Below, one piece after another: positions 6,894 through 52,460 of a stretch of DNA of 64,000 nucleotides. Made by a program: the position numbers and the translations under genes. The first letter of the stretch is position 1; the number at the start of each line of letters is the position of its first letter. The notes under the pieces are model-generated. The model was not told where the DNA came from. It made no database searches and saw only the letters and a list, made by a program, of their open reading frames with translations. Where the stretch lies: contig OX597816.1 of assembly GCA_951406725.2 (NCBI GenBank), positions 32,674,001 to 32,738,000 on the forward strand. Reading direction: 5' to 3'. Origin of the DNA: Octopus vulgaris. Its lineage: Eukaryota.

Positions 6894-6935
6894 CACCTGA
6901 TGAAGGCTGGAGAGTACATCAGCCGAAACGTTGTG
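6894..6935 (+). ncRNA. Minimal type-I hammerhead ribozyme motif (PLE type)
   Basis: CAC-CTGATGA-A-GGCTG(GAGAGTACAT)CAGCC-GAAAC-GTT-GTG. Intact core, 5-bp stem II, palindromic ACGT stem III, stem I CAC/GTG. Confidence 0.75.
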
Positions 6936-7369
6936 ATAATAACAAAGAAGCTCTAATAAATTATATGAAAATTTAGTCGGAATGGCGAAGAGTTTGTGGT
7001 AATGGTAAGAATTGACAAATGTGAGCAATTTTCATTGGGGTAAGTCAGCTGTAAATTCCATTCAAGAAAACGCCATCAAAAGTTAGTCGGGAAAAGCCTA
7101 CAAAAACTTCGAGATTTGTGTCATTTTCTGATTCACACGTAGCAGTTACCTAACTTATTGGGGCATATTGGAATTTCTTTAATATTTGTTTTTCTTCCCA
7201 GGTATCTACATACGTGCTATCCTTCTCGCTTGTTATTAAGCATTCATGGCTAATAAATAATTCCTATTCGCTCTCATAGTCTTCGTTGTCGTCATCATCA
7301 CTATCATCATCTTATCATTCAATATTAATGATATTATTACCATTAATGCAACAAGTTTACAGATTTCGT

Positions 7370-7550
7370 AGCAAAATTTTTAATGGCATTTCGTCCGTTT
7401 TCCCGTTCTGATTTCAAATTTTATCGAGGTCGATTTTCCCTTTGTTTCTTCCAGTCTCAATGAAATGAGTATCATTTGAAATCTGGTGCCGATAATATCC
7501 ATTTTACACACTTCTCGGTACTTGCTGGCGTTGTGCCAAAATTTGAAACT
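7370..7550 (+). mobile_element. Highly degenerate SINE family A copy
   Basis: CATTTCGTCCG...CGTTCTGATTTCAAATTTTATCGAGGTCGATTTTCCCTTT matches the family A copy at 55481. Confidence 0.6.
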
Positions 7551-7561
7551 TATACTGCTAT

Positions 7562-8060
7562 TAATGAGTCATGGAGTAGCTGATATCATAAAAGTGATAC
7601 TGAGGTACAAATATACGTAATAATGTAATAATGGTACACGTCAGACAAGGGTACATGTGCACAACATTGTGATCTCATATCAAGATAAACAGCGCAATAT
7701 AGTCAGAAATTTCTTCAGATCAAATAGGCTATCTTTCTCAAAAGTCCACAAATATGGGTTGTTTAAAGACGATGAACGGATCTCCCATGTTACCAGATGT
7801 AAATATTTCAAACCCCAAAGAACTCTCCATACATGGCTATGATGCTCCCCCATTACTCTCGCTAGAGATAAGAGATGTACGTATCATAAGCCACTTAGGG
7901 ACGTATTCAACCGATTAAGGCCAAGCCATTGACAAGCAAATCTGCGGTATTGAGCATTGTGTCTGCTGCCGACATCTAATAAACAAGACAAAATATATAC
8001 ATGCTGACTCTTCCAATAAGCTAAGATCAGAAGCCACGAGAGCCCCGCCCTGATACGACG
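7562..8060 (-). mobile_element. Interspersed repeat whose 3' end matches the (TAA)n-embedded fragment at 39491-39640
   Basis: The reverse complement of 7565-7690 (TATCTTGATATGAGATCAC...CGTATATTT..ACCTCAGT.TCACTTT.ATG) aligns with 39491-39640. The right-hand boundary is approximate. Confidence 0.55.
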
Positions 8061-8124
8061 AGAGCAATTTATTTTTATTGTTGTTTTCTATCTATTCTAT
8101 TTGTTTGAGACGAGCAATTATGTA

Positions 8125-8495
8125 CAATATTTATAATGGAAGGATAGGTACCCTCCCTTGTTTGTTGTTTTCACAACGTTTTAGCTGATGTACTCTCCAG
8201 CAGTCATCATGTGTTCTGGTGGAATTTCGAACCCACACCATTGACTAATTGGGTACACTATTCTCATTCCCAATGTAAGTTGCTGATGTAATTCTTGTTG
8301 ATATTATTTTTCAAGTCCCTGTCTGGGCCGCACGTCATAGGAATGGGAACAGTGTACCACATTACTAGTCAAATAAAAGAGTAGGTTCGGAATTCCACCA
8401 GAACACTTGATGAAGGCTGGAGAGTACATCAGTCGATACGTTGTGATAATAACAAAGAAGGTGAGGCGACATATCCGTCCATTGTAAATAATGTT
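8125..8495. repeat. Inverted pair of PLE terminal-repeat fragments, each with a decayed hammerhead
   Basis: 8125-8233 is the reverse complement of ~8385-8495. 8366-8460 is a near-identical direct copy of 6856-6950. Confidence 0.8.
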
Positions 8496-9150
8496 GTTGT
8501 CGTTTTGGCCTTTCTTGTAGTTGTCAATGTTGGCAGTAGTGGTGGTGGGTGTGAGGGCTAGTTTCAGATTATTTTATTTCTGCCATACTTGAGACAAAAT
8601 TTTGTGCATATATTATTGGCATGCTCTGTATACATTTATGTTTCTCAGTAATTCTAATTCCGTTATCATAGATATCTCTATGTTTATGAGAAATACGTCA
8701 ATGATTTTATAGAATTATTTGCATCATTCCAGTTCTACTATTCGTAAAATGACGCGTTGCGCTTAATCCAATTACTATCTCCATGCAAAGCCTTAGAATT
8801 TCGGCTCGCTTTTACATAATACTAAAGAGTTTCAGTATTAAAATTTCAATTACTAACATAATTATACTAATATAACGCATTGCTGGATATACTGGTAATA
8901 ACCTCAAGTATAGACTGTTCTATTACATAGTTTAGTTCTGTTTGCTAAAATTCTACATTAGACGTCAATGTCGTTTTTTGAACCACTATATTACCAATGC
9001 TGTTAATAAAGATGCGAACACCATGTACGAAAGAATATAGACTTATACATTATTTACAATATATAAGTATTTATTTAGCCGAAAGTTGAGGGATTCAATC
9101 TATATATATATATATATATATATATATATATATATATATATATATATATA

Positions 9151-49362: not shown

Positions 49363-49490
49363 CCATCATCATCATCAGCATCATCACGAGCATCATCATC
49401 ATCATCATCATCATCATCACCATCATCATCATCATCATCATCATCATCATCATCATCATCATCATCATCATCATTATCATCAACATCAAC
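49363..49490. repeat. (CAT)n microsatellite
   Basis: Direct observation. Confidence 0.95.
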
Positions 49491-50380
49491 AGTAGCAACA
49501 ATAGCAATGTGTGTATGTATGTATGTATGTATGTATGTATGCATGTACATACGCATAGCTCAATGATTAGAACGTCAGGCCCACATTTACAAATGAGCTT
49601 CGGCGTCACTGGTGCCATGCTGTTTCGATATTTGTCTTTCTCTCGGAAAATAACTGAGGCGTGATTAGAGGTGACAAAAAAACAAAAAAACTTGCCCAGA
49701 TTTGTGCCTTCGAGGGTAACTTTCTAACTGGATCCCGTAGTCATTCAATACCTGTAGATGTCCCACTTTTCTCTCTCTCTCTCTCTCCATATATATATTT
49801 TTTCTCTCTCTTCTCCCCCCAATGGTGCCTTCGTACCTCTTTTCTCTCTCTCTCTCTTTGATTCCTTTGTCCCCTTTTTTTCTCTCTCTTCTCCTCTCAC
49901 CTGACTGCTGGTTAACCAGCCTTTCGGCTTCTAACCAGCCTTTCGGCTTCTAACCAGCGCCACGAGAACATCGTTGTCTTCGTCTGCCGAAAAAGGCATT
50001 TTTTTCCAAATAAGTTGTACTGTCTATAAACTAAGTTGTACTGTTTTTGTCCTTTTAATACTATTATTGTTTCTTGTATTTATATTCGGGTGGCATCGTC
50101 CGTTTTTTCTTCCTTGTTTCGTATACATTCGATCCCTTTTCCTAGAAATCTAATGCTCGTAGCTTAGTTTTTCCTTGGGGCTGGCCGGATCGGAGCGATC
50201 TCAAGATTAATGAGCCGAAATTGCGAGGATGATCCGGTTCTTGACTGAAGATTGAAGACTTCGAATGTCCCGTCCGTGTTTTTTGTATCGTCTTCAAAAT
50301 GTTTTACGTTCTTGTCCCAGTTTGTATTTTTCTACATATAATATATATATGTATATATATATATATATATATATATATAT

Positions 50381-51149
50381 ATTACGGAGATGTTCTCGCA
50401 TAGCAAGTAATTTGATATGAGATCGTGTGCTGAAACGAAAACAATTGCAACGTGGAAGGTGTTTATAAGCCATTTAAGAAACACACAAAAGCCGTTCGAT
50501 TCACTTCAACATTTAAGTTTAATTTGTCAAAATATTTTCGTGGCTAAAATCCGCGACCTGTTCACTAACAAAGTCCGTGCTGCATCTAAGAAAGTAACAG
50601 TTAGTTCGTCATATATATGTACGTATGTATGTTTGTATGTATGCATACATGTGTGTATGTATGTACGTATGCATGTACGCACATACGCCTATGTATGCAT
50701 GTATGTATGTATGTATGTATGTGTGTGTATATGCACGCACATACACTCTATAAAACATAAAGCCATAAACCTGTAGCGATGGATGGATCGCTACAGGTTT
50801 ATGGCTTTATGTTTTATAGAGTGTATGTGCGTGCATATAAACACACATACATATATACATACATACATACATACATACATACATACATGCATACACAGGC
50901 GTATGTGCGTACATGCATACGTACATACATACACACATGTATGCATACATACACACATACATACGTACATATATATATGACGAAGTAACTGTTACTTTCT
51001 TAGATGCAGCACGGACTTTGTCAGTGAACAGGTCGCGGATTTTAGCGACGAGAATATTTTGACAAATTAAACTTAAATGTTGAAGTGAATCGAACGGCTT
51101 TTGTGTGTTTCTTAAATGGCTTATAAACACCTTCCACGCTGCAATTGTT
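50381..51149. repeat. About 350-bp near-perfect inverted repeat with a 6-nt spacer in (TA)n; arms carry G3:C8 hammerhead variants
   Basis: Arms 50440-50780 and 50787-51149 with spacer GGATGG. Mirrored ORFs [18 protein letters not shown]. Motifs at 50523-50572 (-) and 51017-51066 (+). Confidence 0.95.
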
Positions 51150-51484
51150 GTATATACATATATATATATATATATATATATATATATATATATATATATA
51201 TATATATATATGCATATATATATATATGTGTATATATATATACATATACATATATATATATATAGTTACATATATGTATATATATGTACATGTACATACA
51301 TATATATATACACACATATATATATATATATGTATATATATATATATATACACACATATATATATATATATATATATAATTACATATACGTATCTATGTA
51401 TTTGTATATGCATCATTATGATTGTGTATGTATGTATATTTATATATACATACAAACACACATATATATGTATACATTCATATA

Positions 51485-52282
51485 CGAGGGGTTACGAAAA
51501 ATAAACCGGAATTTTGCAGTATTATTTAGTTCAATTAGTTTTACATGTTTAAGCTTTTACCGCCTTCAAAGTATTCTCCATTTCAAGCAATACATCGGTG
51601 GACGTAATCGAAGCTGTGCTTTATCTCTTGCGATGTGATGCCTCCATCGTTCATTTCTTCACCACTTCCACATCTTCGATATCCAAAGCAACTGCTTTCA
51701 CCACCAGTAAATAAAGATACGTATCAAATTCCAACTCATTTTCAGTTCACGACACGCATTTAAGCGAGACAAGTTGAGATCGTCAGTGAGCAAGCGAGGC
51801 ATAAATTTTGCTGCAGCTCATTTTATTTGCTCAAAATACGCTGGCAAAATCTGCAAGATGTACTTTTTATATCAAAAATTCGTCAAATATTCAGTTCATG
51901 AATTCTCATTGTTTAATCCCTTCGAACTGTCGACGTTTGTCTTGGAAGAGGCTGGTTATCGAGCGAGAAGTAACTATTCCTAAATTGCTAAAACCACTCG
52001 TAATCTTGCGTTTTGCTAATAACAGCGCCATCGTTTCCGAGCCAAAAAAAAAACTCACGGAGGCACGCTGTTTTTTCGTTTCAGTCATCGCAAGAAATGA
52101 CGACCAAGGGAGATGATCTGCGAAACCAAGGTAAACTATATGGCAGTACGACTCTCACTGAGCACAACTGTCGTGAGAGAGAGACTTGAGGGTAGCATCA
52201 AGTGGATTCTCGCAGCAGAGAACGGAACTCTAAGTGGTTTGTCACATAGAGAATATTCGGGTCAATCTTTAGTACCCCCACG
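51485..52282 (-). mobile_element. Internally deleted mariner element with TIRs and TA TSD
   Basis: Left TA|CGAGGGGTTACGAAAAATAAACCGGAATTTT versus right (reverse complement) TA|CGTGGGGGTACTAAAGATTGACCCGAATATT. N-terminus MTETKKQRASV.F and C-terminus CIA*NGEYFEG. Confidence 0.8.
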
Positions 52283-52294
52283 TATATACATACA

Positions 52295-52460
52295 TGGATA
52301 CTTTTTTTTACGTCCGTCTTTTTCCTTTTCTATTGGACTCTGCTCTCTGTCTGAAGAAGAGCTTTGCTCGGAATGTAAAACCACCTTTCTTTCCTTCCCT
52401 GAGCGACTGCTAATGCTTTACATGTACCACGTTCTCACGTTGTTGTTCTCTTTGTGATTG
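52295..52460 (+). mobile_element. PLE pLTR fragment with a hammerhead-like motif at ~52347-52381
   Basis: CTGAAGA-A-GAGC(TTT)GCTC-GGAATGTA has the same stem II as the 10300/48402 family. Confidence 0.5.

Follow-up and report, generated by a model that had tools for sequence, protein, structure and literature searches.

We analyzed a window of 64,000 nucleotides (nt) from the Octopus vulgaris contig OX597816.1 (the whole stretch of DNA studied, in a surrounding genome of 2.8 Gb). An earlier reading of its letters, here called the sequence-only reading, had listed 20 minimal hammerhead ribozyme motifs there and attributed them to Penelope-like elements (PLEs). We consider it quite probable that the motifs are hammerhead-fold terminal repeats of 13 families, six of which are linked to PLE genes and the rest of which are likely moved by such enzymes, with cutting predicted to occur only in dimers and likely to be slow and helped by protein. 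The new element is a set of fixed changes of normally invariant catalytic letters, namely, A6U, A9C, U4C, and G3-C8, in four young families whose open reading frames (ORFs) are long. Dense and diverse hammerhead populations in PLE ends are known and published (PMC4209133, PMC7229834). Our comparisons with these two papers and with PMC3088659, PMC8557442, and PMC11167929 refer to parts of each.

The listed motifs belong to repeat families that keep the hammerhead fold

By sequence inspection and family alignments, we found a hammerhead-like motif, on either strand, at all 20 of the listed coordinates. We ran a strict type I hammerhead descriptor on the window and on 30 locally shuffled windows. 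It returned four motifs in the window (C3 at 6897+, 17828+, 20643-, and 22075+) and none in 30 of 30 shuffled windows. Three of the four had been listed, and the motif at 17828 had been overlooked. Because 17 of the 20 listed sites fail this descriptor, we tested them through their families. A descriptor that demands a helix III of at least 4 nt without an extra base misses family A. A search of Rfam at E ≤ 5 gave no hammerhead among the 150 of 236 matches listed, in which microsatellite matches dominate.

For each family, we searched the octopus genome, counted first-look candidates, scored the best 40, and fetched 20 to 30 loci. The loci are thus top-scoring samples of each candidate list, and the copy numbers are of first-look candidates. 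Every listed site belongs to a repeat family, with 289 to 2,437 first-look candidates per family. Judged on 19 to 30 aligned copies per family, helices I and II, GAAA, and NUH are present in the majority of copies in 13 of 13 families. The 20 sites had been described as roughly ten unrelated stem sequences; they make up 12 families, of which C and M are related, and the overlooked family at 17828 (E) brings the total to 13. Core or stem damage relative to the copy's own family was found in 15 of the 20 listed copies; those at 6894, 16804, 17409, 20605, and 22071 are undamaged. The motifs at 16804 and 17409 fail the strict descriptor yet match their own family's variant core exactly.

We examined covariation in 13 Hydra-clade motifs aligned by sequence, with the register of helix II taken from RNAalifold on the same alignment. 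We found that 92% of cells were paired, compared with 36 to 57% under slid structure controls. Both sides had changed in 8 of 20 pairs (29 such cells), and 0 of 500 shuffles scored as high. Thus, in the Hydra-clade alignment, the compensatory changes that the sequence-only reading had proposed to look for are present. The short palindromic helix III was also as described, suited to dimers: a homoduplex formed in 11 of the 12 families folded, family D being the one in which it did not. Helix III of family E has a 4-bp arm and a 1-nt loop. We infer that the hammerhead fold is still under selection.

Five families have nonstandard catalytic cores

The standard CUGANGA type I core had been ascribed to all of the motifs. 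We found that it is the majority core in 8 of the 13 families (A, E, F, H, I, J, K, and M), including young family F, and that the other five have a nonstandard majority: U4C in B and G, A6U/C in C, A9C in D, and G3-C8 in L. To avoid a motif-driven bias on core counts, we made a second selection of copies by ORF and not by motif. In family C (17,466 candidates, open frames of >1,000 amino acids [aa]), A6U was present in 20/20 ORF-selected loci and 23/23 copies. In family D (9,416 candidates, a 1312-aa frame), C9 was present in 15 of 16 loci, and the remaining locus had no motif. Family L, with >1,100 candidate copies, had G3-C8 in 33/33 motifs of ORF-selected copies, and its wider lineage kept this pair in all 8 divergent loci that retain a motif, of 15 fetched. 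In family G, U4C was found in 15/20 motifs of ORF-selected copies and the standard core in 4/20, as in its older subfamily.

Lineage C shows which positions vary. Among 52 distinct copies, position 6 was U or C and was A in 0/52, N7 took all four bases, and H17 was A or U. In a wider set of at least five subfamilies, H17 was also C and never G. The freedoms at N7 and H17 would be those of a working hammerhead, which is suggestive only. Among 77 metagenome loci encoding relatives of the D and L proteins, most motifs were standard or U3-A8; U3-A8 with C9 and G9b occurred in L538 and A6U in the distant L601, in one copy each. Incidental U3-A8 hammerhead families also occur in the octopus genome (L043, L163, L327, L077, L100, L325, and L345).

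Natural core variants are known: U3-A8, A6C (in a phage, kobs of <0.1 per min), U4C (in a viroid), and U-U at 10.1-11.1 (Perreault et al. 2011, PMC3088659). They are rare single cases there, whereas here changes are fixed in families of hundreds to thousands of candidates; A6U, A9C, and a natural G3-C8 are not among the variants in the part of that paper that we drew on. The 56 aligned examples in the consulted part of PMC4209133 are CUGANGA or the U3-A8 swap, in contrast to U4C, A6U/C, A9C, and G3-C8 in 5 of 13 families here. G3-C8 has been a laboratory rescue (PMC11167929, PMC8495972, PMC9901934); it was engineered as a partial rescue in the anole Poseidon element PAc (PMC11167929) and is natural in family L. 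Our literature search found no report of A6U, A9C, or natural G3-C8 families; Luense et al. 2017, Arkhipova et al. 2017 (Terminon), or supplements may list some.

Six families lie behind Penelope-like ORFs

We found the motif downstream of Penelope-like reverse transcriptase (RT)/GIY-YIG ORFs, on the same strand and at several loci each, in families C, D, F, G, I, and L. Complete copies, in which an ORF lies between two pseudo-long terminal repeats (pLTRs), were found for G (L381, 775 aa), C (L451 and L452), and D (L521, a 1312-aa open frame). L381 reads, in order, an inverted truncated copy, pLTR, the 775-aa ORF, and pLTR. The placement of hammerheads in PLE terminal repeats is thereby borne out. 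In the window, the motif at 31460 does sit behind a PLE ORF, as the sequence-only reading had it, with a helix I of 5 bp; its core is U4C and its helix II is unusually long, at 56 nt. The family of that ORF has 778-aa open frames at other loci. A second remnant, of an endonuclease, precedes the 10300 motif by about 900 bp on its upstream side. The nearest named relatives of the window's PLE proteins come from Argonauta and Octopus. Pfam gave zero matches for the window's PLE ORF pieces and likewise for an intact Hydra ORF.

We assigned clades by eye, by comparing protein motifs with those of Craig et al. (PMC8557442) and not from trees. On this basis, families F and G agree with the Hydra clade, and family C agrees with Neptune. 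The family G ORF at L381 has DKT, an RWK-like motif, C-terminal CxxC and CxH, and no CCHH, and its target is (TA)n; the motif reading for family F covers its C-terminal part. A CxCX5C linker is present in F (L032) and absent in G. F and G resemble the Hydra clade of Craig et al. in DKT, the lack of CCHH, (TA)n targets, and inverted 5'-truncated copies. The family C ORFs (L451 and L452) have a DKG motif, a CX2-5CxxC linker, and a C-terminal CCHH endonuclease; they are visually close to the Neptune1_Ap rows and match Pfam RVT_1 and, weakly, GIY-YIG. The D and L proteins, for which 277 relatives were found, have the linker and CCHH expected of the Neptune or Nematis clade, where the RT fingers carry no insertion; in D and L, however, RT motifs A and B' are separated by a long insertion. 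Possibly, they are an unplaced PLE clade. Such an insertion is reported for N-terminal-endonuclease PLEs (Craig et al., PMC8557442), and in the D and L proteins at L434 1968-5045 (-) and L521 810-4748 (-), the GIY-YIG is C-terminal despite it.

Craig et al. (PMC8557442) already include a hammerhead-bearing Hydra family from Octopus. All cores in the consulted part of their File S2 are standard; the clade with a 55-nt helix II, the 3.6-kb 3' untranslated region (UTR) of family F, and the U4C subfamily lie outside that table. By masked self-BLAST, that UTR holds internal tandem repeats of about 270 to 430 bp (window 21098-22048). Families B, H, I, J, and K share with the Hydra-type hammerhead design (PMC8557442) the U-U at the base of helix II or the 4-bp helix III with a 1-nt loop. 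Like the minimal hammerheads of PLEs (Cervera and de la Pena 2014, PMC4209133), the octopus motifs have a short helix I, an extra base after A9, a palindromic helix III, and a site in the pLTR. They are also alike in forming many unrelated families per genome, mostly as single motifs from truncated copies, and in occurring as opposite-strand pairs 100 to 700 bp apart.

PLE-linked copies are usually truncated inverted pairs, and one family forms retrozyme-like units

The PLE-linked copies are usually 5'-truncated inverted pairs in (TA)n. The distance from the motif to (TA)n is fixed in families B, C, D, E, F, G, and L; family K and most A copies are not in (TA)n. In family B, the two arms of one insertion share copy-specific letters, with 0 transversion differences in 12 of 15 insertions compared with 27% between insertions. 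Each insertion therefore produces its own inverted arm afresh, which fits the two-strand priming of the anole element (PMC11167929). The octopus copies are like anole PAc (Frangieh et al. 2024, PMC11167929) in the one-end tail, the AT-rich targets, the extension of both strands, and copy ends that are not at the cut site. We rejected B as a fixed 160-nt element, as its tail-selected copies have variable 5' ends and two extend further. The window pairs lie on opposite strands and therefore cannot pair up on one transcript, so that cis dimers between inverted arms were rejected as well. Inversion or truncation junctions lie in or beside the helix III palindrome at L484, L491, L511, and L364; the palindrome may be a fold-back hot spot.

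The sequence-only reading had also proposed retrozyme-like derivatives. We found that family E has a terminal direct repeat with a period of 462 to 486 in 11/29 loci, as of a permuted unit of about 478 nt. In family K, a 350-nt period was found in 1/19 loci, with 266 and 311 in two others. The proposal of short noncoding units is thus supported for E and weakly for K. A circular-permutation signal was absent from the sampled loci of A, C, D, H, I, J, L, and M. Compared with metazoan non-long-terminal-repeat retrozymes (PMC7229834), E and K are alike in being short noncoding units with more-than-unit insertions. They differ in that E (~478 nt) is slightly above the 150- to 450-bp range and the sampled E and K loci are without long tandem arrays. 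Elsewhere there are true tandem arrays, in which each unit of about 360 nt carries a single hammerhead, at L311 2100-4760 (standard core, including an inverted part) and L047 398-1118 (U4C).

Hammerhead density is a property of the genome

We sampled 40 evenly spaced 10-kb stretches (400 kb) and made five shuffles of them. We found 18 strict motifs, compared with 0 to 1 in each of the five shuffles; 7 of the 18 sit in one array with a 359-nt period (L311). The sample predicts 2.9 strict motifs per 64 kb, compared with the 4 seen in the window [P(≥4) = 0.33; P = 0.13 once the L311 array is counted as one, with low test power]. Window-specific enrichment was thus rejected. The "dense population" claimed for the window is real against shuffles and high genome-wide, and the window is not enriched over the rest of the genome. 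Extrapolation gives 126,000 strict motifs in the genome (95% interval, 75,000 to 199,000), or 84,000 with the L311 array counted once; these estimates cover strict motifs and exclude variant and decayed copies. This order of 10^5 motifs compares with 2,000 to 9,000 per genome in a published survey (PMC4209133), with >6,000 motifs in 16 families in Acropora, and with up to 120,000 in the axolotl (PMC7229834).

Together, these results support the large radiation of ribozyme-bearing PLEs and retrozyme-like derivatives that had been postulated, with the correction that most window copies are decayed 5'-truncated ends.

Other features of the window

Two further hammerhead families with a long helix II, both overlooked earlier, have left decayed 3' halves at window positions 18221-18281 (-) and 41179-41227 (-). 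A GAAA followed within 60 nt by a CUGANGA-like word occurs at 15 window sites, including 47620, 50217, and 61726 (+) and 4126 and 27022 (-). At 26056-26256 (+) lies what remains of a Hydra-type endonuclease, degenerate and with 54% identity to family G; no hammerhead was found behind it. The window is AT-rich, and microsatellites are abundant. Further short dispersed repeats lie at 29220-29640, 3693-3859, 34594-34813, 41879-41990, and 55482-55715, the first of which we take to resemble an octopus short interspersed element. A 180-aa open frame at 39534-40076 (+), for which Pfam gave zero matches, presumably resembles the C-terminal tail of a non-LTR retrotransposon.

Table 1. Hammerhead motifs, insertions, and PLE remnants of the window, in window positions
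Position	Strand	Feature	Remark
6894..6935	+	Family A minimal hammerhead, standard core, undamaged	Cut predicted to follow 6932; 24 aligned copies
8172..8213	-	Family A, decayed inverted arm	
8404..8445	+	Family A, decayed	C3 and GAAA altered
9151..9378		Family B insertion	Fold-back U4C hammerhead pair, one-sided tail, between (TA)n
9255-9292, 9308-9345	-, +	Family B hammerheads	Both damaged
10300..10333	-	Family C hammerhead (A6U lineage), decayed	3' end of Neptune-type PLE
11238..11360	-	Neptune-type PLE C-terminal endonuclease remnant	Shares 73% identity with the L169 ORF
16686..17630		Family D insertion	Inverted arms, (TA)n flanks
16806-16845, 17412-17451	-, +	Family D A9C hammerheads	Both match family
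17822..17881	+	Family E hammerhead, standard core, undamaged	Inside ~478-nt noncoding retrozyme-like unit
20521..22196		Family F insertion	Long 3' UTR of Hydra-type PLE plus inverted short arm
20605-20647, 22071-22113	-, +	Family F hammerheads, standard	Undamaged
27674..27709	-	Family C hammerhead	Decayed
29657..31177	+	Hydra-type PLE ORF (RT + GIY-YIG)	5'-truncated; in-frame stop at 29978-29980
31460..31544	+	Family G hammerhead, U4C core	Helix II of 56 nt; the 8-nt helix III palindrome is disrupted here
32045..32092	-	Family H hammerhead, standard family core	U-U at helix II base; decayed
35821..35872	-	Family I hammerhead, standard family core	Decayed; 5 loci behind Hydra-like endonuclease
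44482..44539	-	Family J hammerhead, standard family core	Decayed
48160..48201	-	Family K hammerhead, extended helix I	Helix II damaged here; ~350-nt retrozyme-like unit
48402..48437	-	Family C hammerhead	Carries A6C; disrupted helix III palindrome
50440..51149		Family L insertion	Inverted arms between (TA)n
50523-50572, 51017-51066	-, +	Family L G3-C8 hammerheads	Each damaged
52347..52381	+	Family M hammerhead, standard family core	C-related; decayed

Discussion

We propose that a tandem pLTR-ORF-pLTR copy would be transcribed, that the GIY-YIG nuclease would nick AT-rich DNA, and that the RT would then prime on both strands from close to the RNA's 3' end. Most copies would stop early, often at the short palindrome, and such stops would leave two outward-facing hammerhead stubs that later decay. 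Cutting would occur only as dimers on tandem transcripts, probably with the element's protein, and might be slow or optional. If full catalytic speed is unnecessary for spread, weakened cores could therefore be fixed.

Several observations weigh against this account. Two of the five covariation measures were unremarkable (22/500 and 125/500), and shuffle tests can be beaten by related sequences without structure. Family D has no palindromic helix III and formed no stable homoduplex on folding. The flanks of lineage C are about as conserved as its core; therefore, conservation alone is no proof of selection, and the argument is which positions vary. The PLE ORF link is seen at one locus each for H and J and was not found in the fetched loci of A, B, E, K, and M. 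With regard to cleavage, 2 of 110 unselected copy 5' ends fall no more than 2 nt from the predicted cut, with about 1 expected; 5' truncation at the cut site was rejected, as this is chance level. Own-genome searches with the post-cut part only gave zero for L and C, whose truncation counts rest on incidental copies. Finally, A6U and U4C may be nearly dead, because, when a type III hammerhead was put through deep mutagenesis, CUGA-turn changes other than the C-G to G-C swap left low activity (PMC9901934); A9C may be nearly dead too.

The anole PLE hammerhead cut only with the protein present, and its insertion in vitro was independent of the cut (PMC11167929). Minimal PLE hammerheads cut poorly in vitro (PMC4209133). 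The fixed core changes suggest that cutting in the variant-core families is likely weak, protein-assisted, or dispensable for spread. We tentatively raise the possibility, which we hold at less than even, that several of the top PLE families run on "broken" cores (A6U, A9C, U4C, and G3-C8), with the fold and the NUH rule under selection. The protein might then be part of the catalyst and broaden the range of tolerated cores, or slower cutting might be favored because insertion is templated by uncut RNA.

It is somewhat less likely, in our estimate, that the variant cores are dead relics that hitchhike, the fold being kept by the youth of the lineages or by another role of the hairpin, such as protein binding or priming. 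Core changes do reduce in vitro activity (PMC9901934, PMC3088659), insertion in vitro needs no cut (PMC11167929), Naiads spread without canonical hammerheads (PMC8557442), and the cut site has no truncation peak. Furthermore, C9 of family D could pair with G12. However, G3-C8, the sole double change known to rescue activity, is kept in 8 of 8 motif-retaining loci of the L lineage. Lineage C, where H17 switches among A, U, and C and never G and N7 is free in at least five subfamilies, also speaks against dead relics, as do the same changes in the PLEs of other organisms (C9 in L538 and A6U in L601, one copy each).

We find it improbable that all families, variants included, are fully active, with multimers cut into circularizing units that template insertions, as retrozymes would do. 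Tandem units with one motif per repeat (L382, L451, and L521), the permutation in E and K, the ~360-nt arrays, and the retrozyme circles shown in coral, mussel, and axolotl (PMC7229834) speak for it. In contrast, the permutation signal is absent in eight families, copy 5' ends are not at the cut, and the poor cutting of minimal PLE hammerheads in vitro argues against it. The idea that the motifs are mostly chance matches in AT-rich repetitive DNA has practically nothing left to it: only 3 of the 20 listed sites pass the strict descriptor, but the shuffles, the family alignments, and the covariation refute it, as all sites map to families with a full-fold majority, located where PLE ORFs would lead one to expect them.

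As to why PLEs retain hammerheads, Craig et al. suggest that hammerheads may simply parasitize PLEs (PMC8557442), and Frangieh et al. found that the cut was dispensable in vitro (PMC11167929). Standard descriptors undercount animal hammerheads, as the variant-core families show. Sister families with standard and variant cores (M and C; old and young G) are matched test pairs, and young, abundant long-ORF families with four core changes are a natural experiment on why PLEs keep these ribozymes.

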